DNA from: a virus
IMG/VR virus record: IMGVR_UViG_3300010356_000385
Length of the DNA stretch: 46,158 nucleotides
Reading direction: 5' to 3' (one strand)
Shown here: in pieces, positions 1,399 through 41,067 of the stretch
Numbering within the stretch: position 1 is the stretch's first letter
How the letters are laid out: every line of letters starts with the position of its first letter
The notes under the pieces: generated by a model
Told to the model about the DNA's origin: nothing
Databases searched by the model: none
The model's input: the letters and a program-made list of their open reading frames with translations, nothing else
Position numbers and translations under genes: made by a program

Positions 1399-2826
1399 TT
1401 ACTCTAGCACTATCGATTTAATATACTCAACCATAGAACCTCCTTTTTCATATATTCCAATAAAGTCTAATAGTCTATCCGACCAACCTGTTAAGTGTAT
1501 TACTCTTTGGCTTGAAATATCTTTAGTTCCGTATCCTTCAATATCTATTGCGTATACATAAGGATCTATTTTCATAATATTCTTATATTGGTTATACTGT
1601 GCTTGTGTACCACCTTCTCTTCCATACCAACCATAACTATCTGCCCAAGACTCGTTATCAGAAATTATGATTATTCTGTCGTATTCCTTTCTCTTGTCCT
1701 CTGCATATGCAAAAACTAAAGATGTATTTGTACCACCACCCCTAGCCTCCGATTGTATCTTCTTTGCTAAATCTATTACTGGCATTCTACTAGAAAATGC
1801 AAACTCGTAAACGCTTGTATCATAAAGAATTAGATCTGCATTTACGTTTGCCTTTGCCAACGTAGATCCAAAGATAGAAGCTATTTCCATTGGTCTTCCA
1901 CTCATTGATCCAGAACAGTCAATAGCTATCAATGTACTACCATTTAATTCTGGAGTATTGTCTACTGCATAATCCATAGCTACAGATATTGCGTCTGTTA
2001 ATTGTCTGTTTCCACTTACATTGTCGTATGCAGTAACAAACCTAAATGGTAATTGTTTAGACCTTTTAACCTCTTCTCTGTCTGTTAGCTTGGCTATAGC
2101 CTTATTTAGAACCTCTTGAGATACGTCGTTCTTAATGAGGTTGTTTAAATTTCTAAGTAATGCCATATATCCCATTTTGTTTTCTAGTATTAGCTTCTCC
2201 CAATTATCTTTCTTGTTCTCGGCGTTAGAAGATGAAATTACCGCCTCCCAAGTTTTACCTGTTGATTTCAAGTTTCCCTCAATCAAATCCTTCCAAGCCT
2301 TTTGTTGCTCTTCTGTCGCAAATTGAGGCTTTGGGTGAACCATATTAAATATGTCTACCAGTTTAACCTCCTTCTTTTCTCCTCTATATTTAGCTAGTTT
2401 GTATGGAGAGAATTTGTATAAAGCTCTTCTAATACCTCTTTTTACCTGCTTTGGTAGTTTACACTCTAAGTATGAAGCTAACTCTGTTAGATCATCAACC
2501 CTTGTAACGGTGTTTTTAATAGCCCTCATTACAAGATCATCTCCTTTGTGTATTTTGGCCAACTCTCCTAAGAGCACAGTTGATACACTTCTTAGATTGA
2601 ACTCTATCCTTGATACATACGCTAGGTTTGCGACAAAAACAGGATCGCACTTTGCGACCAAACCCTGTATTCTTGTGAGTCTGTTGTCTCCACTCTCGTA
2701 ATACTTGTCATCTAGAAATGTTGTTAGAACTGCGTGTAGCAATTCTTGCTCTGCGTTCATTTTAAACGCTTTTCCACCAGCTTTGTTGGTAGTGGTGTTG
2801 TCTACCTTTGTGTTAAATCTTGACAT
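1399..2826 (-). CDS. rsr: Ro60/Rsr orthologue (TROVE domain plus vWA domain), 475 aa
   Basis: Several strings align with Ro60 landmarks. MGYMALLRNLNNL matches MPLTALLRNLGKM and KQLPFRFVTAY matches ARIHPFHILIA. LIAIDCSGSM is a MIDAS DxSxS motif. GGGTNTSL, IIISDNESWA and LTGWSDRLLDFI also match. Confidence 0.9.
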   Translation of the reverse strand: MSRFNTKVDNTTTNKAGGKAFKMNAEQELLHAVLTTFLDDKYYESGDNRLTRIQGLVAKCDPVFVANLAYVSRIEFNLRSVSTVLLGELAKIHKGDDLVMRAIKNTVTRVDDLTELASYLECKLPKQVKRGIRRALYKFSPYKLAKYRGEKKEVKLVDIFNMVHPKPQFATEEQQKAWKDLIEGNLKSTGKTWEAVISSSNAENKKDNWEKLILENKMGYMALLRNLNNLIKNDVSQEVLNKAIAKLTDREEVKRSKQLPFRFVTAYDNVSGNRQLTDAISVAMDYAVDNTPELNGSTLIAIDCSGSMSGRPMEIASIFGSTLAKANVNADLILYDTSVYEFAFSSRMPVIDLAKKIQSEARGGGTNTSLVFAYAEDKRKEYDRIIIISDNESWADSYGWYGREGGTQAQYNQYKNIMKIDPYVYAIDIEGYGTKDISSQRVIHLTGWSDRLLDFIGIYEKGGSMVEYIKSIVLE

Positions 2827-3149
2827 AGATTTAATAATAAAAATTTAAGGGGAAAGTAAAGTACGGAAATAACGAGCATCACGTTGTGCTTCATGACCAG
2901 AAGTAACCGTACTTATTACCACCCATTAAGGAGGAAAAAGGTGGAACAGCACGTTTTGAATCCGCAGTTCGAAGTATCTGTTCCTTTACCCTCCTTAGCG
3001 AGAGGTAATAGGGGTAAACGAGGTCGGTAATATATGACTTGTATATATTAGACAAGGAATTAATGTCTCCCGACTTGGCACAGGCATTCACCTGTAGGAG
3101 TCGCCGAAGCGACAGTTTCAATGATTATTGAAGTAACCGACCTCTCACC

Positions 3150-3262
3150 ACCAGTTCAGTAGGGGCGAACAGTACAACAGCTTAAACCCTTTCGGGAGTA
3201 TAGGGATCGAACCTACTAATTTCTTGGAAAGAAATCTTAGCCAGAAGTATCTGTTGTTTCGC
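3150..3262 (-). ncRNA. Second, degenerate tRNA-like module
   Basis: On the minus strand there is a 7-bp hairpin ATTTCTT-TCC-AAGAAAT. A T-arm GTAGG-TTCGATC-CCTAT (3216-3200) follows, then a CCC-GAAA-GGG hairpin (3196-3187). The D-arm is not canonical. Confidence 0.4.
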
Positions 3263-3269
3263 ACCCCCT

Positions 3270-3398
3270 GATGTAGGGGTCAAGTGTTACAGTATATTTA
3301 GCGCTCTACCATCTGAGCTAACGCCCGAAGGCGTGTTGGATTTGAACCAACGACCTCTCCTTTATCATAGGAAGTAACTGTAACTTAACCCTACTAAA
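3270..3398 (-). ncRNA. yrlA: YrlA-type Y RNA candidate with a circularly permuted tRNA-like domain
   Basis: The minus strand reads AGGTC, then the T-arm GTTGG-TTCAAAT-CCAAC. Next is a closed acceptor hairpin ACGCC-TTCG-GGCGT, then TA, then the D-arm GCTC-AGATGGTA-GAGC (3356-3301). An imperfect long stem closes the module: GTAGGG/CCCTAC, AAG/CTT and TTACAG/CTGTAA (3394-3376 with 3296-3273). Confidence 0.7.
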
Positions 3399-3700
3399 CC
3401 AGTGGCGACCTTAATTTTAAAAGAACTGTTAGGTACTCTAAGACCCACACATTCACCACCTAGGCTGGTAATATGTGAGTTACCCGTTTGTACGAACAGG
3501 TAAAGGGCGACTTAGTAACGGTGTATAGCCTGAGTCCGTGTCCCTCCTTGTTCTGTATCCCTTTCACAGAGCACAGGTCGAGTTATATACCTCGCTATGT
3601 TGCGCTATACAGGTCTTACAATACCCAACTTTTAAAGAACTACTTTGTCCACTCTTGCCAAGTTTCTAGTAATATCTCGCCGATCATAGCAAGAAGACCA

Positions 3701-3741
3701 AAAACTATTGGGAGTACTACATACAAAAGGATTGGTACTCC
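3701..3741 (-). terminator. Intrinsic terminator candidate after gene 3768..4211
   Basis: 7-bp stem GGAGTAC..GTACTCC, followed on the minus strand by CAATAGTTTTT. Confidence 0.5.
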
Positions 3742-3767
3742 TACAATCACTAACAATATCGTCATAT

Positions 3768-4211
3768 TCAATATCTCTCATTAAATACAAAATAACCGCC
3801 TTTTAATTCTCTTTTTCGTCTAATTCTTTTAGTAGACTCGTCGGCGTCAAGATCTGGATTTAACTCTTGAACTTTTCTTCTAGCCCTAGTTATTGTCTCT
3901 GGCGTTGGACATATTAGAAAATTTTCATAATCAAGCATACCGTCTTTTAAGTGTCCCATACTCTGGTACACCGCCCATATTAGTCTCCTATCACTTGATC
4001 TTGCTTCTTTATCTTGTTCTAGTATCAACTTTACTAGATCATACATACTTCCTTTATTTGGCTTCCTGTATATGCTTTCTTTATTTTTCACTTCGGGTAT
4101 GTCTTCCCTAACATACTCTACTCCACAACCCTCCCCGCAGTCGCTACACCTACCTATAAACCCATTCGAGCCTATAACTTTAGCACCACAACAGTTACTT
4201 ACTTCGACCAT
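3768..4211 (-). CDS. Hypothetical protein with a Cys-rich zinc-ribbon-like N-terminus (147 aa)
   Basis: CCGAKV..CSDCGEGCG cysteine cluster and a basic C-terminal half. Confidence 0.65.
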   Translation of the reverse strand: MVEVSNCCGAKVIGSNGFIGRCSDCGEGCGVEYVREDIPEVKNKESIYRKPNKGSMYDLVKLILEQDKEARSSDRRLIWAVYQSMGHLKDGMLDYENFLICPTPETITRARRKVQELNPDLDADESTKRIRRKRELKGGYFVFNERY

Positions 4212-4215
4212 AGTA

Positions 4216-4398
4216 TTAACTTGTTATTTTAATTATGAACCTTTCCCTTTCCTCAGCGACCTTTTGAGTTCCAAGGAGGGGGAAAGATCCATCGGGTGGT
4301 ACTGCTAAACCACCTTGGGGTGATGGATCGTGTGTTAAAGAACTGTAGTTTTTAACTACGGGGATATTATACCACACTTGACCCTTGTAGTCAAACAT
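4216..4398 (-). CDS. Hypothetical protein (60 aa)
   Basis: ATG ORF that fills the gap between neighbouring genes, with an 8-nt overlap with the upstream gene. Confidence 0.4.
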   Translation of the reverse strand: MFDYKGQVWYNIPVVKNYSSLTHDPSPQGGLAVPPDGSFPLLGTQKVAEERERFIIKITS

Positions 4399-4579
4399 AT
4401 AGATTGTTAAGAACCAACCAGTCTTTCATAGCTCCGATAGCGGTATCTTTAGAGTATGCCCCTATTTTTACCACCCTCTCTCCCTCTTTGAGTAACTCCA
4501 TACTGAACCCTTCCTTTGCTTTGATCCATTGTATTTTGTAGTTACTCGGGATCTTCTTGTTGAGTTGTGTTATTGTCAT
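4391..4579 (-). CDS. Hypothetical protein (62 aa)
   Basis: ATG ORF in the operon. Confidence 0.5.
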   Translation of the reverse strand: MTITQLNKKIPSNYKIQWIKAKEGFSMELLKEGERVVKIGAYSKDTAIGAMKDWLVLNNLYV

Positions 4580-5186
4580 TTTGTTCTAATAATAATTTAA
4601 TTTCTTCCTCACACTCCCCGATCTTCTTAATCCAGTCTTCGGTGTATTTTAGTTTTTCTATCTCGTATGTACCGTCTGTTTTAAACACAACAAGGGCTAA
4701 TTTATCTGTCCCATTATCAGCGTATGAGTACATACTTGTTTGGTACGCAACCTTTTTGATCTTAGAAGAGTCTCTTTTATACTTCCCGTTCCAAGCTCCG
4801 TAGGTTTTACTATCACATAAATACTCTTCACCATCTATAATGACTTTCATATCATATGTACCTGCGTATCCGAACTCATCGCAATATACGGGTTGTTCAC
4901 ACGCAACTACTTTATATGCCCCTAGGAAGTCCTCTACGGCTGTTTTAAGCCCTGTTTCCTTGGCAATGGTACAAGGACTGTCCAATTCGCTAATTCCTAG
5001 CGTAGCGTTCTCTATCCACTCGCTAACCTTAGTCCCCATTCTCGCACTATCTCTTTTGATTTTCTCTGGATCGTGTCCATTGGCTTTGCACCATTTTTCA
5101 AATCCCTCATCGTTGAATGGAAAGAAAATATTAATAAGTTGTGTTACCGATATATAATCTTTCCCGTCTTTTGTATATCTTGCCAT
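4542..5186 (-). CDS. PD-(D/E)XK family nuclease (RecB/Cas4/YqaJ-like exonuclease)
   Basis: GTYDMKV..YLCDSKT fits the D..(D/E)xK core, and QTSMY fits the QxxxY motif. Confidence 0.6.
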   Translation of the reverse strand: MARYTKDGKDYISVTQLINIFFPFNDEGFEKWCKANGHDPEKIKRDSARMGTKVSEWIENATLGISELDSPCTIAKETGLKTAVEDFLGAYKVVACEQPVYCDEFGYAGTYDMKVIIDGEEYLCDSKTYGAWNGKYKRDSSKIKKVAYQTSMYSYADNGTDKLALVVFKTDGTYEIEKLKYTEDWIKKIGECEEEIKLLLEQNDNNTTQQEDPE

Positions 5187-6371: not shown

Positions 6372-6677
6372 TTAGTAACCAATATAATCCCCGTCATTGT
6401 TAAACCCTACGGGTATACTGTCAGATCTTCCATAAACAATCGAACTTCTTACTCTCATTGGCTTGTCGCCAACTATCTCTACAAGGGTAAAACCCTGCTC
6501 TAACAACCTTTTAAGGACTGTAGATACAAGTGCATACCTCTTATCGGCCTCACTTGTTATTACCCGTCTTTCCTCTAGCGTATGGTCGTTATCAAACGAT
6601 ATTGTATATTCTGCCGAGGTATTGAGAATTTTGATAGTGGCTGTATAACCACGATCGTCTTTAAGATATATTAACAT
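6372..6677 (-). CDS. Hypothetical protein (101 aa)
   Basis: ATG ORF, the first gene downstream of the consensus promoter at 6710-6738. Confidence 0.6.
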   Translation of the reverse strand: MLIYLKDDRGYTATIKILNTSAEYTISFDNDHTLEERRVITSEADKRYALVSTVLKRLLEQGFTLVEIVGDKPMRVRSSIVYGRSDSIPVGFNNDGDYIGY

Positions 6678-8501: not shown

Positions 8502-8768
8502 TTATTTATCTAAAAGTGGCTCTACTCCACCATAAAAATCAGTTGCCCATTTATCCACATCAAGCCCTGATATTTTTCTTATATTGCCATTTGTTTCGTT
8601 TGTTATTTCAATGTAGTAAATGTATCCACTATCGCTAGAGTAAACATCAATAGTCCATTCTGTTTCGCCGTCCTTGTTATCCAGTTGATAGCTTGTGATC
8701 GTGTCATAGGTCTTACATATACCCCCGTGCTTTTTAGCTTCCTTTATTAATTCAATTATAGTTTTCAT
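8502..8768 (-). CDS. Hypothetical protein (88 aa)
   Basis: ATG ORF. Confidence 0.55.
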   Translation of the reverse strand: MKTIIELIKEAKKHGGICKTYDTITSYQLDNKDGETEWTIDVYSSDSGYIYYIEITNETNGNIRKISGLDVDKWATDFYGGVEPLLDK

Positions 8769-10479: not shown

Positions 10480-10788
10480 TTAATTTAGATCTTTAAAGGT
10501 ATATATACCCTCTTTGATCTTTTTTTCAGTTGTTTTTTTATCTTCACCTAGAAAAATATTTCTGTATTTACCAGTAGTTTTTGAGTAGTCCCAGTATACA
10601 GGATCTAAAACGGTTTTACCGTCATAATCTATATAAGCAATAATACTGTTATATGATTGGAAGTATACACGATCAAAAGCGACCTGATCGCTATCCCCTG
10701 AGGTTTTAACCCTGATCGTGAATTGATTGGCAACCTTATTGCCGTTGTTGCTTTCCATATTAGCAACTTTTATTGATTGGATATTCAT
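10480..10788 (-). CDS. Hypothetical protein (102 aa), first gene of the leftward arm
   Basis: ATG ORF about 50 nt downstream of the predicted start site of promoter 10845-10873. Confidence 0.6.
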   Translation of the reverse strand: MNIQSIKVANMESNNGNKVANQFTIRVKTSGDSDQVAFDRVYFQSYNSIIAYIDYDGKTVLDPVYWDYSKTTGKYRNIFLGEDKKTTEKKIKEGIYTFKDLN

Positions 10789-10844: not shown

Positions 10845-10873
10845 AATATACCACGAACACAAACAAGTGTCAA
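10845..10873 (-). promoter_or_regulatory. Leftward sigma70-type promoter
   Basis: The minus strand reads TTGACA-CTTGTTTGTGTTCGTGG-TATATT with a 17-nt spacer. It shares the TTCGTGGTAT block with the promoter at 6710-6738. Confidence 0.6.
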
Positions 10874-11135
10874 GTAGTATGTATATGAATATAATGGCTT
10901 GTAGTAATTCAACGGCTTTGATCTTGTCAATTTGGCGTAATAACAAGCACCCCGTTATATACCCATTAAGAGAATAATATATAAAATATCTAGTAATATT
11001 GGTATGTAATATCTATTAATCAGCGTAACTAACAAGAACCGTCCCATCTTCACCCCTATATACATATAAACAATACCTAGTATATAAGTTATATCTAGAT
11101 CATTAAGGGTATGAGGTATCTAAAGGTTGAGTATC

Positions 11136-11261
11136 TTATCCACTTATCCACAACGACGCCCGAGTTATCCACATAGTTATCCACAATTATATATATTGCA
11201 ATAATATGCACCTATAAAGGATAATTGACATATCTAGATCATAGTTATCCACATATCCACA
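11136..11261 (+). promoter_or_regulatory. Cluster of six same-orientation DnaA boxes (oriC-like or DnaA-titrating element)
   Basis: Perfect TTATCCACA at 11144, 11165, 11177 and 11245. 8/9 matches at 11136 (TTATCCACT) and 11253 (ATATCCACA). The flanking 13-mer ATATCTAGATCAT occurs twice (11091, 11231) and carries GATC. Confidence 0.7.
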
Positions 11262-11316
11262 TACCCTATTACTACTATCTCTAGTATTAATATATATCTA
11301 GAATTATATTATATTA

Positions 11317-11370
11317 TATGTATGTATGAGTATGTAATAGTATGTATATGTATGTATATGTATGTATATA
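11317..11370. repeat. Degenerate TATGTA/TATG tandem repeat tract (AT-rich unwinding-element candidate)
   Basis: The tract reads tatgtatgtatgagtatgtaatagtatgtatatgtatgtatatgtatgtatata. It is embedded in nearly pure A/T sequence next to the DnaA boxes. Confidence 0.75.
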
Positions 11371-11402
11371 TAACTAGATCCCGATACCGATATATATTTT
11401 TA

Positions 11403-11431
11403 TGGCAAGTATATATATAAATTTTTATAAT
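11403..11431 (+). promoter_or_regulatory. Candidate rightward promoter (-10 TATAAT)
   Basis: TATAAT at 11426-11431 with a weak -35 TGGCAA 17 nt upstream. Confidence 0.3.
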
Positions 11432-11442
11432 AATATTATTTT

Positions 11443-11610
11443 ATGCCGTCATATCAACACATCAAGAGAGGGCTACCACCCCGACTTGCTTTCGGTGATA
11501 AAATTTTGGAGGGTCCCACGTCCCCAGATAGAGACATTTTTAGGAATGTAGTACATACAAGTATTTACAAATACACACAAGTATGTAATAATACATACAA
11601 TAAATTATAA
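11443..11610 (+). CDS. Possible small ORF (55 aa) in the control region
   Basis: Hand-translated as MPSYQHIKRGLPPRLAFGDKILEGPTSPDRDIF.... It covers the only GC-richer patch of the AT-rich region, but it overlaps the predicted operators. Confidence 0.25.
   Translation: MPSYQHIKRGLPPRLAFGDKILEGPTSPDRDIFRNVVHTSIYKYTQVCNNTYNKL
11553..11604 (+). promoter_or_regulatory. Three 20-bp-phased near-palindromic repeats (operator candidates) overlapping a candidate promoter
   Basis: ACATACAAGTAT at 11553, ACACACAAGTAT at 11573 and ACATACAA at 11593. The idealised core is ACATAC-AA-GTATGT. TTTACA (11564), 16 nt, then TAATAA lie within the repeats. Confidence 0.45.
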
Positions 11611-11621
11611 AGGTTGTAGAT

Positions 11622-11924
11622 ATGAAGATAACGATAAGTATTCCGCAGAAGGTGTATGACGAGTTAGAGGGTTTGAGAGGTAGGGTTCCTAGGAGTACAT
11701 ACATACAGGGTTTGATCCAGGAGGTGGGTAATGCGAAGAAGAGGGAGATATTGGAGCGTGGTTTTGATTCTGATGTTAGTTATAGTGATAGTGAGCCGAT
11801 AAGTGGTACGAGTATGGAGGCGGTAGCGGGTCTTGGTAGTATGGGTAAGAAGAAAGCCGTTAAGGGTTCTAAGGAGTTGCCTAGTCAGGGAGAGGGTGAG
11901 TTTAAGACGTATTTTAAGAAGTAG
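11622..11924 (+). CDS. Ribbon-helix-helix (CopG/Arc/MetJ-like) DNA-binding protein
   Basis: The N-terminus KITISIPQKVYDELEGL..VPRSTYIQGLI fits a beta-strand/helix/helix pattern. It is the first gene of the rightward arm. Confidence 0.55.
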   Translation: MKITISIPQKVYDELEGLRGRVPRSTYIQGLIQEVGNAKKREILERGFDSDVSYSDSEPISGTSMEAVAGLGSMGKKKAVKGSKELPSQGEGEFKTYFKK

Positions 11925-11945: not shown

Positions 11946-12410
11946 ATGGATTTTTATACTATAAAGGTGGAGTGCATTAATTGTTCTCAGTACACGGGGG
12001 TTTTAAAGATAGACAAGGGTACGAGGATAGTGGACGCATTAAGGAGAGAGGGGTGTCCTGTGTGTGGTTGTAAGACGTTGAGTAGGGTTAAAGAATTAAG
12101 TTGGTATACTACTAATAGTTCAGACAATACAATTAGTGTTGGTAGTTGTAGGGAGCCAGAGTTTCCGACTGTTTATGCTGCGTCTTTTAAGGATTCTCCA
12201 GTATGGATTTGTGGAGATTGTGGTGGTAAGTATGGTCGTGGTGAGTGTGGTCTTGCCACTTGGCACGAGGACAGGTGTGATATTTGTGGGTTAACTACGT
12301 TTGTGACTGAGCCAAGGGATTTTGGTGGTTTAAGGAGTGATTTTGCTAAACTTCGGGCTACGGAGGTGGAAAATGGAACAGATGATTCCTTTTCAGATGA
12401 TAAGGCATAA
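11946..12410 (+). CDS. Cys-rich zinc-finger protein (154 aa)
   Basis: Several CxxC pairs: CINC, CPVCGC, CGDCGG, CDIC. Confidence 0.6.
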   Translation: MDFYTIKVECINCSQYTGVLKIDKGTRIVDALRREGCPVCGCKTLSRVKELSWYTTNSSDNTISVGSCREPEFPTVYAASFKDSPVWICGDCGGKYGRGECGLATWHEDRCDICGLTTFVTEPRDFGGLRSDFAKLRATEVENGTDDSFSDDKA

Positions 12411-12657
12411 TGATGATAATGGTATTAGTGGTACTGGGGTAGTGTTAGACGGGGTAATATTTCCAAATGGTAGGGTGGTGGTGTGTTGGAAAGCTGGTAA
12501 TGGTAAAAGTAAGTGTGGTAGTATTAATATATACGACAGTATAGAGGATTTTGAGGACATTCATGTGACTCATCATCCTGGGAATGGGACAGAATTAGTG
12601 GGTTATGATCTTGATGCGGAGGTAGAGCAGCGGCAGCTTGCTAGTCTCATAAACTAG
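12373..12657 (+). CDS. Hypothetical protein (94 aa from the ATG at 12373)
   Basis: GGAGGTGG lies 4 nt upstream of the ATG, whereas the track start at 12337 is GTG. The last 14 codons run into tRNA-Met. Confidence 0.5.
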   Translation: MEQMIPFQMIRHNDDNGISGTGVVLDGVIFPNGRVVVCWKAGNGKSKCGSINIYDSIEDFEDIHVTHHPGNGTELVGYDLDAEVEQRQLASLIN

Positions 12658-12690
12658 AGGTCAGGGGTTCGAGTCCCCTCCCCGCAACCA
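12614..12690 (+). tRNA. tRNA-Met: tRNA-Met (anticodon CAT; elongator or Ile2-type), CCA encoded
   Basis: Anticodon arm CTAGT-CTCATAA-ACTAG, T-arm AGGGG-TTCGAGT-CCCCT, acceptor TGCGGAG/CCCCGCA, then A and CCA. Confidence 0.85.
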
Positions 12691-12701
12691 GCTCTTTAAC
12701 A

Positions 12702-12775
12702 GGTGGCGTAGCCCAATTGGCAGAGGCTCCGATCTCAAAAATCGGCCAGTGTTGGTTCGAGTCCAGCCGTCACTA
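12702..12775 (+). tRNA. tRNA-Leu-like: Class-I-shaped tRNA with Leu anticodon CAA (74 nt, 5-nt variable loop, no encoded CCA)
   Basis: Reads GGTGGCG TA GCC-CAATTGGCAGA-GGC T CCGAT-CTCAAAA-ATCGG CCAGT GTTGG-TTCGAGT-CCAGC CGTCACT A. Confidence 0.8.
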
Positions 12776-12776
12776 A

Positions 12777-12850
12777 GCGCGTGTATCCCAATTGGCAGAG
12801 GAAGCTGTCTTAGAAACAGTTGAGTGCAAGTTCGAGTCTTGCCATGCGCA
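12777..12850 (+). tRNA. tRNA-Leu-like: Class-I-shaped tRNA with Leu anticodon TAG (74 nt, no encoded CCA)
   Basis: Reads GCGCGTG TA TCC-CAATTGGCAGA-GGA A GCTGT-CTTAGAA-ACAGT TGAGT GCAAG-TTCGAGT-CTTGC CATGCGC A. Confidence 0.8.
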
Positions 12851-12854
12851 CTTT

Positions 12855-12928
12855 GGATAGGTAGTCCAATTGGCAGAGACAGCGGACTTAAAATCCGTCC
12901 AGTGAGAGTTCGACTCTCTCCCTATCTA
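12855..12928 (+). tRNA. tRNA-Leu-like: Class-I-shaped tRNA with Leu anticodon TAA (74 nt, no encoded CCA)
   Basis: Reads GGATAGG TA GTC-CAATTGGCAGA-GAC A GCGGA-CTTAAAA-TCCGT CCAGT GAGAG-TTCGACT-CTCTC CCTATCT A. Confidence 0.8.
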
Positions 12929-12929
12929 C

Positions 12930-13013
12930 GGAAGATTGGCAGAGTGGTAATGCAGCAGTCTTGAAAACTGTAACGGTTAAATGCCGTCAGAGGTTCGAAT
13001 CCTTTATCTTCCG
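12930..13013 (+). tRNA. tRNA-Ser: tRNA-Ser (TGA), class II
   Basis: Anticodon arm GCAGT-CTTGAAA-ACTGT, long variable arm AACGGTTAAATGCCGTC, T-arm AGAGG-TTCGAAT-CCTTT, discriminator G. Confidence 0.85.
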
Positions 13014-13015
13014 CT

Positions 13016-13103
13016 GGAAAGTTGACAGAGCGGCTGATTGTGCTTCTTTGCTAAAGAAGTGGGTGTAAAAGCCTCGTGGGTTCGAATCCTACACTTTCCG
13101 CCA
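13016..13103 (+). tRNA. tRNA-Ser: tRNA-Ser (GCT), class II, CCA encoded
   Basis: Anticodon arm CTTCT-TTGCTAA-AGAAG, long variable arm, T-arm GTGGG-TTCGAAT-CCTAC, acceptor GGAAAGT/ACTTTCC, then G and CCA. Confidence 0.85.
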
Positions 13104-13104
13104 A

Positions 13105-13191
13105 GCAAGTACTGTAGAGACGGTGAGCTACGCTTGTCTGTAAAACAAGTCCTTTCGGGGTGTATAGGTTCGAATCCTATTACTTGCACCA
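13105..13191 (+). tRNA. tRNA-Tyr: tRNA-Tyr (GTA), class II, CCA encoded
   Basis: Anticodon arm CTTGT-CTGTAAA-ACAAG, variable arm TCCTTTCGGGGTGT, acceptor GCAAGTA/TACTTGC, then A and CCA. Confidence 0.85.
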
Positions 13192-13234
13192 GTGTTATTA
13201 GAATGGTATAAAATATTAAGATCTTTAAAAACAT

Positions 13235-13309
13235 GGTGGATATGGTTTATTGGTAAAATACCCTGCTGTGAACAAAGAGAAATTGGTTCGATTCCAATTA
13301 TCTACCCCA
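13235..13309 (+). tRNA. tRNA-His: tRNA-His (GTG) with genome-encoded G-1, CCA encoded
   Basis: An extra 5' G lies opposite discriminator C. Anticodon loop is CTGTGAA and the T-arm is ATTGG-TTCGATT-CCAAT. The anticodon stem CCCTG/CAAAG has two C-A mismatches. Confidence 0.7.
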
Positions 13310-13310
13310 T

Positions 13311-13386
13311 GCGAGATTCGTTTAATGGATCAGGATGACTGCCTTCCAAGCAGTGGGTATGGGTTCGATTCCCATATCTCGCACCA
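13311..13386 (+). tRNA. tRNA-Gly: tRNA-Gly (TCC), CCA encoded
   Basis: Anticodon arm ACTGC-CTTCCAA-GCAGT, T-arm ATGGG-TTCGATT-CCCAT, acceptor GCGAGAT/ATCTCGC. The D-stem is weak. Confidence 0.8.
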
Positions 13387-13387
13387 G

Positions 13388-13462
13388 GCTTCTGTAGCTT
13401 AACAGGTAAAGCTGCTGATTTGTAACCAGCCGTTTGAGGTTCGAGTCCTTGCAGAAGCTCCA
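13388..13462 (+). tRNA. tRNA-Thr: tRNA-Thr (TGT), CCA encoded
   Basis: Anticodon loop TTTGTAA, D-arm GCTT-AACAGGTA-AAGC, T-arm TGAGG-TTCGAGT-CCTTG, acceptor GCTTCTG/CAGAAGC. Confidence 0.8.
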
Positions 13463-13463
13463 T

Positions 13464-13538
13464 TAGGGAGTGGTCAAATGGTAAGACGACTGGCTTTGAA
13501 CCAGTAGACTCTAGGTTCGATTCCTAGTTCCCTAACCA
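13464..13538 (+). tRNA. tRNA-Gln: tRNA-Gln (TTG), CCA encoded
   Basis: Anticodon arm ACTGG-CTTTGAA-CCAGT, T-arm CTAGG-TTCGATT-CCTAG. Confidence 0.85.
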
Positions 13539-13539
13539 T

Positions 13540-13614
13540 GGGCTTATAGGCTAATTGGAAAACTATGTCACTTGCAATGACAAGTTCTGAGTTCGATTCT
13601 CAGTAGGTCCACCA
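13540..13614 (+). tRNA. tRNA-Ala: tRNA-Ala (TGC) with a G3-U70 pair, CCA encoded
   Basis: Anticodon arm TGTCA-CTTGCAA-TGACA. Acceptor GGGCTTA/TAGGTCC places a G-T pair at position 3-70. The D-arm is degenerate. Confidence 0.7.
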
Positions 13615-23360: not shown

Positions 23361-26817
<3,457 letters not shown>

Positions 26818-26818
<1 letters not shown>

Positions 26819-40026: not shown

Positions 40027-41067
40027 ATGGGAGCGACCACCTATGTAGGGTGGCCTGGTTTAGTAGTTAATATAAGTAGGCGCACAATGAGAGAAGGTAT
40101 ATTCACGGGTCCAGACGAGAGCAGCTTTAAGAGTAGATCACAAATATTCTATGAACAGCAGGCTGTAGGGGAACCCATTTACAGTAAAGATTTTACTACA
40201 TTTTATAGAGACTTTTCATTTTGGCAACAGGAAATGGAAAGGAGACAAGAATTGGATCAGGAACTTGACCCAATTCAAGAGTATATTGAAATAGATATAC
40301 CAACTGACCGACCAATAGCAATCGGACTTTTAGGTGATTTGCACCTCGGAAGCCCAAAGGTTGACTTTAAAAAATTAGGTAAAGATGTTCAGGTGATAAA
40401 GGAGCACCCTTTATGTAGAGTGTTTACCCTTGGAGATCTTACCGATTCGTTCTTCTGGAACCCAGCACAGGACGAAGATTATTTTAATTCCACAGAACAA
40501 TATTCGTATATGCGATCTATCCTTGAAGAAATTAAGGGTAAAATGCTCGGCTCTTGGATGGGAAATCACGATTTCGACTGGGAGAGAAAAGCTGGAATAA
40601 CAACAAAGTATCACGAGTTTAGTGAGAAATTTGGATGCCCTGTATTTCACGGTGTTGGTTTTATTAAGCTAGGTTTAGTAGCACCTGATGGGTCTAAGGT
40701 TACTTATAATCTAGCTGGTGCTCATGAAGCACCTGGTTCAAGTATTTATACAAATGCACACCCAGGCGTAAGAATGCACAGAGAATACCAAAATATTGAC
40801 GTAGCAATGGTGGCTCATACCCACAGAAAAGGGCTTGCAGAACAACCAATAAAGGAGTTTGGTGGTGGTGGAAGAGACGGCGTTGCAATGGTAACGGGAA
40901 CATATAAGAGGGTTGATGGCTATGGAAGAAGGAAAGGTTATGGATCAATACCAGAGGAGCAACGTGGAATGAGTTGGGTAATATTAAATCATGATAGAAA
41001 GATGATAAGACCTATGAGTGATACTGATAAAATGCTAGAGACAATGGCTGGATACTTGAGAGAGTAA
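40027..41067 (+). CDS. Calcineurin-like metallophosphoesterase (346 aa)
   Basis: Ordered motifs GDLHLG, GDLTD, GNHD, then GAHE and HTH. Confidence 0.75.
   Translation: MGATTYVGWPGLVVNISRRTMREGIFTGPDESSFKSRSQIFYEQQAVGEPIYSKDFTTFYRDFSFWQQEMERRQELDQELDPIQEYIEIDIPTDRPIAIGLLGDLHLGSPKVDFKKLGKDVQVIKEHPLCRVFTLGDLTDSFFWNPAQDEDYFNSTEQYSYMRSILEEIKGKMLGSWMGNHDFDWERKAGITTKYHEFSEKFGCPVFHGVGFIKLGLVAPDGSKVTYNLAGAHEAPGSSIYTNAHPGVRMHREYQNIDVAMVAHTHRKGLAEQPIKEFGGGGRDGVAMVTGTYKRVDGYGRRKGYGSIPEEQRGMSWVILNHDRKMIRPMSDTDKMLETMAGYLRE

Follow-up and report, generated by a model that had tools for sequence, protein, structure and literature searches.

Laboratory plasmids known as oriC minichromosomes have a cloned oriC as their sole origin of replication and obtain all proteins from the host. 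The origins of P1 (oriR), F, pSC101 and R6K carry accessory DnaA boxes by an AT-rich region and need a Rep protein of their own together with iterons, and the datA locus of E. coli, with about five high-affinity boxes outside oriC, inactivates DnaA with IHF through hydrolysis of DnaA-ATP. To our knowledge, the DnaA boxes of phages (lambda, P1, T5) have been described only as accessory sites or as sites of enigmatic role, and the general view is that a tailed phage brings at least an initiator or a function that loads the helicase. The core of the bacterial chromosomal origin, the basal unwinding system (BUS), follows a small set of rules: a DnaA box with at most 2 mismatches is oriented toward the trios, often within a tandem pair whose better box lies upstream; a spacer of 0-16 bp, most commonly 13, separates the located box from the first trio; a gap of ~4 bp after the proximal box is named the GC-rich region; and at least three consecutive NAN trios (consensus 3'-GAT-5') follow, with GAT nearest the box (PMC8287927). 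In B. subtilis incC, a distal and a proximal subregion of boxes have been shown genetically (PMC6669920). The iss region of T5-like phages contains 8 DnaA boxes with pairs 3 bp apart, and the pairs belong to inverted repeats (IRC/IRD and IRD'/IRC') of the long terminal repeat (bioRxiv 10.1101/866236).

The window analysed here, a stretch of 46,158 nucleotides, is a complete circular assembly of an uncultivated tailed phage. An identical 149-bp direct repeat at its two ends (1-149 and 46010-46158) represents an assembly overlap, and the assembly is therefore circular or circularly permuted, with a length of 46,009 bp; contigs identical to the window are found in the independent assemblies SRR4236648 and ERZ27257465. 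Terminase, portal, capsid, tail fibre and endolysin genes mark it as a phage, and dnaA and dnaN are absent. The genes form two divergent arms separated by 833 bp of non-coding DNA, the first gene of the leftward arm ending at 10788 and that of the rightward arm starting at 11622. The leftward arm consists of small early-type genes, with ORFs of at most 279 aa apart from a Ro60 homologue, and the rightward arm carries tRNAs followed by the terminase, portal, capsid, tail and lysis genes. Inside this gap, positions 11136-11442 probably constitute a DnaA-dependent phage replication origin that mimics the chromosomal oriC core. What was observed directly is the sequence anatomy of the locus, its identity with oriC cores and its selective conservation, together with the fact that no replication genes were detectable.

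The gap contains six DnaA boxes on one strand within 126 bp (11136-11261, +), at the divergence point of the arms, as the initial annotation had reported. Boxes were scored against the consensus TTATCCACA, from which the preference of the host DnaA may differ. Perfect copies of TTATCCACA start at 11144, 11165, 11177 and 11245, and boxes matching at 8/9 positions at 11136 (TTATCCACT) and 11253 (ATATCCACA), so that every site was located where that annotation had put it. The distal group of four (11136-11185) begins with the overlapping tandem boxes TTATCCACT / TTATCCACA, offset by 8 bp (11136-11152, +), and continues with a perfect box at 11165-11173 (+) and another, 3 bp past it, at 11177-11185 (+). 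About 60 bp downstream of this group, the proximal tandem boxes TTATCCACA / ATATCCACA (11245-11261, +) read TTATCCACATATCCACA, with the better match upstream and both members pointing toward the trios. The two boxes of each pair (11136/11144 and 11245/11253) overlap by one base.

Over the whole window, perfect boxes are enriched (8 observed against 0.57 expected, with 0/100 dinucleotide shuffles reaching 8), whereas boxes with 1 mismatch are not (18 against 14.9 expected). The genome-wide enrichment that had been suggested as a check thus holds for perfect boxes and fails for degenerate ones, and the signal therefore resides in the local cluster and the perfect boxes. None of 200 Markov-1 genomes produced six same-strand boxes in 126 bp, the largest cluster among them holding 3, and a Poisson estimate for such a cluster is ~1e-8 genome-wide. 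The four other perfect TTATCCACA boxes lie in coding regions, at 8551 (+), 16649 (-), 33371 (+) and 43493 (-); of these, the box at 16649 has no conserved counterpart in L018, the close relative described below.

Downstream of the proximal pair, a 4-bp spacer, TACC (11262-11265), leads into a DnaA-trio array on the bottom strand, 3'-GAT AAT GAT GAT AGA GAT CAT AAT-5' (11266-11289, -), its strand and register being those to be expected beyond a box that points rightward. As high a score is reached at only 25 of ~92,000 genome positions and in 0/5000 local shuffles. Measured against the BUS rules, the box at 11245 has 0 mismatches and that at 11253 has 1, both on the + strand; 12 bp separate the end of the upstream box from the first trio, with the 4-bp gap TACC directly before it; and where at least three NAN trios are called for, GAT AAT GAT GAT stand in succession before trio 5 (AGA) departs from the pattern, and GAT CAT AAT follow. 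Beyond the trios, an AT-rich tract of low stability (11290-11442) is a candidate DNA unwinding element. The stretch 11262-11442 is 81% A+T, by nearest-neighbour energy no 200 bp of the genome are less stable than 11244-11443, and 11276-11375 is the second least stable 100 bp, essentially tied for least; the extreme AT tract already remarked upon after the boxes is thereby confirmed, and easily melted DNA lies where the BUS rules place it. The four boxes at 11136-11185 correspond to the distal subregion.

With the oriC BUS (B. subtilis incC; Richardson 2016/2019, Pelliciari 2021), the locus thus shares consensus boxes in tandem, of which the upstream one is the better match, a spacer of 4 bp, 3'-GAT-5' trios in strand and register, a low-stability tract downstream and separate distal boxes. 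It differs in that it lies in a phage genome without DnaA, between divergent early and late operons rather than at a chromosomal site beside dnaA/dnaN, in that its spacer TACC is less GC-rich than the usual GCCC, and in its single off-pattern trio. Judged by its sequence, 11136-11442 carries the full anatomy of the chromosomal oriC unwinding module without being a chromosomal oriC.

This anatomy also bears on the second reading offered in the initial annotation, in which the array acts as a DnaA sponge that titrates or inactivates host DnaA in the manner of datA and blocks host initiation, the phage itself replicating by other means. The two loci have in common a DnaA-box cluster outside oriC, and 6-7 high-affinity boxes per genome together with the 4 scattered perfect boxes, multiplied by the copy number, would sequester much DnaA. 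The datA locus, however, has neither trios nor an unwinding element and plays no role in starting replication, whereas the phage boxes come with both. A pure sponge would have no use for a GC spacer, in-register trios or an unwinding element, all of which the window has and L018 retains, and no alternative replication machinery or origin is visible. A sponge is therefore the less likely of the two readings and, taken by itself, very unlikely; titration of DnaA may still occur as a side effect of the array.

The proposed origin can be compared directly with bacterial chromosomes. A scan with TTATCCACWTATCCACA, covering one genome per bacterial species, returned at least 120 loci from many phyla. 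Among the matches listed (at least 120), ~35 have a 4-nt GC-rich spacer followed by (CTA)n, the top-strand spelling of 3'-GAT-5' trios, at the same offset as in the phage; spacers at this place in the bacterial oriC copies are GCCC, ACCC, GGCC and similar. Six bacterial loci were tested by Pfam: dnaA and dnaN flank the site in four (Eubacteriales, Pseudogracilibacillus, Poribacteria and Peribacillus), and in the other two (Clostridia and Binatia) dnaN is confirmed beside it. The 17-mer of the proximal pair also occurs between dnaA and dnaN in bacteria of several phyla. Because the arrangement of box pair, four nucleotides and (CTA)n is shared with sites at dnaA-dnaN, the phage element corresponds to the canonical chromosomal unwinding core. 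Its identity to chromosomal oriC cores from many phyla amounts to 92-95% over 32-38 nt, with no flanking homology. Since the similarity ends at this 32-38-nt core, it gives no sign of a recent, larger oriC capture and no clue to the host. The comparison with oriC minichromosomes follows the same line: a DnaA-dependent oriC-type sequence would be the sole replication determinant in both, but minichromosomes are laboratory constructs with host DNA, whereas the phage is natural and shares only a 30-40-nt core with the sampled chromosomes.

Conservation was assessed in relatives reached through the portal protein. In L018, whose portal is 95% identical and which has the same gap, 52/52 box positions are identical to the window, against 41/74 (55%) of the inter-box positions (Fisher P = 7e-10). 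The distal tandem boxes at 11136-11152 are unchanged, the boxes at 11165-11173 and 11177-11185 are kept, and L018 has gained one extra box, inserted just before the former. In L018, GCCC forms the spacer, and the frame of the trios, GAT AAT AAT GAT AAT, is unchanged. Only one close relative with this gap was found, so conservation amounts to one comparison; on that single comparison, the pattern indicates that the box cluster is under selection in L018.

The same data weigh on the idea that the locus is a non-functional relic, a piece of host oriC gained by illegitimate recombination and left unused. An identity of 92-95% over 32-38 nt to chromosomal oriC is what such a piece would display, but the similarity is confined to the functional core with flanks that lack homology, the boxes are perfectly kept amid diverged spacers, one box has been gained in L018, and the layout recurs in eight unrelated viral contigs (see below). 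We regard a relic as highly improbable.

Two further elements of the gap were compared in the same way. The 13-mer ATATCTAGATCAT is present twice, as the initial annotation had noted. Copy 1 (11091-11103) contains the palindrome ATCTAGAT and is conserved in L018, whereas copy 2 (11230-11242) is not conserved there and is therefore probably not a required part. The GATC it carries occurs 4 times in the 833-bp gap against ~3 expected from base composition by simple arithmetic, which is no enrichment. The duplication stands, but neither the 13-mer nor its GATC is supported as part of the element, and this item of the initial annotation is incidental. On the other side of the boxes, a non-coding block at 11466-11530 is 100% identical in L018 with diverged flanks, and might serve in packaging or regulation or encode a small RNA. 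A 55-aa ORF over this block (11443-11610) is not conserved in L018, and the divergent gap of L006 contains a motif, AGAGAGGG..TA..CCCC, that resembles the block in part. An exact 21-mer of the block matched nothing in IMG/VR or the JGI metagenomes, and Rfam searches of the gap gave nothing meaningful; a match to mir-297 was discarded as a low-complexity artefact.

An origin that depends on host DnaA fits the gene content of the phage. In PHROGs and Pfam searches of the ~60 ORFs of the window, structural and lysis genes, a Ro60 homologue, an SPFH protein, two nuclease-like proteins and HTH proteins were recognised, and no DNA polymerase, primase, helicase, helicase loader or initiator was detected. 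The exonuclease-like genes are located at 4542-5186 and 40027-41067. With the initiator and the DnaB-like helicase of the more distant relative L023 as tblastn queries, no match was found in the window. These searches bear out the earlier statement that no polymerase, primase, helicase or initiator gene is recognisable in the 46 kb. Some 35 small early proteins have no detectable function, and a novel initiator or helicase loader could be hidden among them.

More distant relatives are arranged differently. L021, L022 and L023, with portals 48-54% identical, share the structural module, and the 19-21 kb fetched from each contain no box cluster. In L023 (portal 52%), a replication initiation protein and a DnaB-like helicase (3140-5184) lie directly beside the divergent gap, the former with matches to several PHROG families of initiator and DnaD-like type, and there is no DnaA-box cluster. 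Within one phage family, the initiator-helicase module and the DnaA-box/BUS module thus appear to be alternatives at the same genomic position. With a full oriC opening module and no recognisable replication genes, the phage probably initiates by borrowing host DnaA; this was the first reading in the initial annotation, and the anatomy, the conservation in L018 and the contrast with the initiator and helicase of L023 all lend it support.

In two other relatives, with 78-81% identity, the large terminase is 810-813 aa long (L019, 392-2824; L020, 1787-4228) and contains a LAGLIDADG domain, likely an intein or a homing endonuclease; the terminase of the window has 465 aa.

The most serious rival to host-DnaA initiation arises from the repeats that adjoin the boxes. 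A 10-bp-phased repeat of alternating pyrimidines and purines, (TATGTATGTA)n (family D1, 11315-11376, inside the candidate unwinding element), contains GTATGTA units, its inverted counterpart with TACATAC lies at 11549-11611, and together they flank the conserved block. The motif ATATCTAG occurs 4 times in the gap against 7 genome-wide. An unrecognised phage initiator might bind ATATCTAG and (TATGTATGTA)n, with the DnaA boxes helping only in opening or helicase loading, as at P1 oriR, and the many early ORFs without an assigned function leave room for such a protein. The origins of P1, F, pSC101 and R6K do resemble the phage locus in that DnaA boxes adjoin an AT-rich region in a mobile replicon; they differ in having a Rep protein and iterons, whereas no Rep and no convincing iterons were detected here, and in lacking trios in BUS register. 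PHROGs and Pfam showed no ORF with a Rep, initiator or helicase-loader domain, and tblastn with the L023 initiator was negative. Where an iteron array would consist of several 17-22-bp units, the gap offers only a contiguous 10-bp repeat, which is 20 bp shorter in L018 and resembles a variable microsatellite, and the short ATATCTAG motifs. Complete trios in canonical register are not a feature of iteron origins.

The repeats also have another candidate role. Homologues of gene 11622-11924 were found only in L018 and in one 47% relative, L025; in the latter, GTATGGTAAA repeats (GTATGG-like) precede the gene and DnaA boxes are absent. Similar repeats beside the regulator homologue in a boxless phage suggest an operator of that regulator. 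The 100-aa product of gene 11622-11924 looks by eye like a ribbon-helix-helix regulator, with no Pfam match, and the GTATGTA / TACATAC repeats may be its operators. With these points set against it, initiation by an unrecognised phage protein is, in our estimate, unlikely. Homologues of the DUF8033 flanking gene, more than 1000 in number, are so widespread in unrelated phages without box clusters that they were useless as a tracer of the element.

The position of the cluster between the arms raises the possibility of a transcriptional switch, in which cluster-bound DnaA controls the early and late promoters on either side. Transcriptional regulation by DnaA is known, for example at lambda pR and at dnaA and other host promoters, and the cluster does lie in a divergent control region. 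The best sigma-70-like promoter candidate of the leftward arm, TTGACA-17-TG-TATATT (10845-10873, -), lies ~260 bp from the boxes; it is a consensus match only, the number of such sites in the region being no higher than in shuffles. A promoter-like site just 5' of the first rightward gene (11564-11592, +) falls within the TACATAC repeats. No box is overlapped by the best promoter-like sites, which lie ~260 bp away on the left and 140-300 bp away on the right; moreover, 6-7 boxes with trios far exceed known regulatory sites, and relatives with the same divergent layout are boxless. A switch of this kind is decidedly unlikely. The change of transcription direction also limits the use of GC skew, whose inflections at ~11 kb and ~42.5 kb coincide with coding-strand changes. 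The inflection proposed as a check at about 11 kb is indeed present, but falls exactly at the switch of transcription direction, with which it is confounded; it is not independent evidence and was dropped as a line of origin evidence.

Among isolates, megablast of 10-13 kb against INPHARED gave no close match and portal tblastn matched none; a terminase search of IMG/VR found no relatives. The large terminase reaches only ~33% identity to its nearest isolates and is a distant relation (~30-34% identical) of those of several phages of ~105-120 kb infecting Stenotrophomonas, Pseudomonas, Rhizobium, Xanthomonas and Vibrio, which we take to be T5-like. This affinity, and the 3-bp distance between the boxes at 11165 and 11177, as in the T5 pairs, would suit an injection-stop or membrane-anchoring signal of the kind proposed for the T5 iss region. 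In both cases, a lytic phage carries a conserved array of boxes, some of them spaced by 3 bp, in a long stretch of non-coding DNA. In T5, however, the boxes sit in inverted repeats within the terminal repeat, without trios, in a phage with its own replication machinery and with origins elsewhere; here, the six boxes all run in direct orientation, none of them lies in an arm of an inverted repeat, and a BUS core follows. The role in T5 is itself no more than a hypothesis, and we consider such a signal extremely unlikely here.

If the locus is a DnaA-dependent origin, initiation could proceed as follows. Host DnaA-ATP would bind the distal group of four boxes (11136-11185) as well as the proximal pair (11245-11261), and a DnaA oligomer would grow from the proximal pair over the 4-bp spacer and engage the bottom-strand 3'-GAT-5' trios (11266-11289) as single-stranded DNA. 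The unstable AT-rich tract beyond the trios would then open, to ~11440, and the host helicase and its loader would be deposited there, after which the host replisome would copy the genome. DnaA binding, unwinding, helicase loading and actual use of the origin are steps that we infer. With DnaA, helicase and replisome supplied by the host, the phage would need no initiator, helicase, primase or polymerase of its own. The exonuclease-like genes at 4542-5186 and 40027-41067 might later support recombination-driven amplification. An origin that depends on DnaA-ATP would fall under host control of initiation, which seems slow for a lytic burst unless replication passes to other mechanisms.

A phage with a copy of the oriC core as its sole replication determinant would represent a new strategy of host takeover, and its origin a natural, minimal and portable BUS for the study of DnaA-driven unwinding. 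Competition with oriC for DnaA-ATP would be predicted, amounting to a built-in host shut-off. Origins, and dependence on host initiation factors, would become predictable in uncultivated phages.

The layout is found beyond this phage. A pattern search of IMG/VR for a box pair, four free bases and three trios matched eight unrelated contigs (L148-L155; GC 31-69%), where ~2e-4 are expected by chance (an estimate). They show distal boxes, then TTATCCACATATCCACA, 4 nt and (CTA)3-6, and each has 2-7 further boxes 40-110 bp upstream. No dnaA or dnaN was found nearby and no protein is shared with the window; terminase, portal, major head or RecT genes are present on three of five contigs scanned. In the literature searched, the coverage of which is incomplete, no phage origin with DnaA-trios was described; the nearest case is a Pseudomonas phage with its own polymerase, for which Ori-Finder predicted DnaA boxes. 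Recurrence in eight unrelated viral contigs suggests a general phenomenon, open to direct survey, and the element of the window probably belongs to a larger class of phage origins that has gone unrecognised. The stronger proposition is that mimics of the oriC module form a widespread and undescribed class, acquired independently in hosts of 31-69% GC, that lets tailed phages lose all their replication genes and rely entirely on the DnaA and the replisome of the host; we advance it tentatively, as a real possibility that falls short of an even chance. Were it true, phage DNA synthesis would be coupled to the initiation potential of the host, or carriage would be plasmid-like and coupled to the cell cycle.

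Viral contigs with similar box pairs or clusters and no trios (L009-L015) may reflect a different use of DnaA boxes. One of them, L013 (IMG/VR, GC 64%), carries 5 perfect boxes and 1 near-perfect box in the same orientation in a divergent gap (6484-6587), beside an HTH-like gene.

Several features outside the gap deserve mention. The Ro60 homologue (1399-2826, -) is 475 aa long, with TROVE and vWA domains. Just upstream of it, a sub-threshold match to YrlA, a Y RNA-like family, lies at 3273-3392 (-; 37.7 bits, E 1.8e-6) and is overlapped by a tRNA-like hit at 3192-3327. Gene and match together (1399-3392) look like a phage-borne Ro60 / Y-RNA module. A Shine-Dalgarno-like sequence precedes only 7/56 genes, and TTAAATT / TTAATTT is found 10-20 nt before the start codons of most genes; as a weak hint, this combination suggests a host that does not initiate through Shine-Dalgarno sequences, possibly one of the Bacteroidota, or a phage-specific signal.

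In the rightward arm, a 91-aa product at ~12382-12657 (+) is assigned to PF26761 (Acb5) in the precomputed Pfam annotation of the identical contig and only to a family of unknown function by PHROGs; a role in anti-defence is possible. An array of 15 tRNA genes (12615-14193, +) separates the first rightward genes from the terminase. In L018, this position measures only ~380 bp, and the array was therefore recently gained or lost. Within the structural arm, a region at 23361-26818 (+) encodes a glycosyltransferase-methyltransferase fusion of 481 aa, after which comes a collagen-like tail-fibre gene that lies in DNA of locally high GC content (52.7%, against 39% overall).
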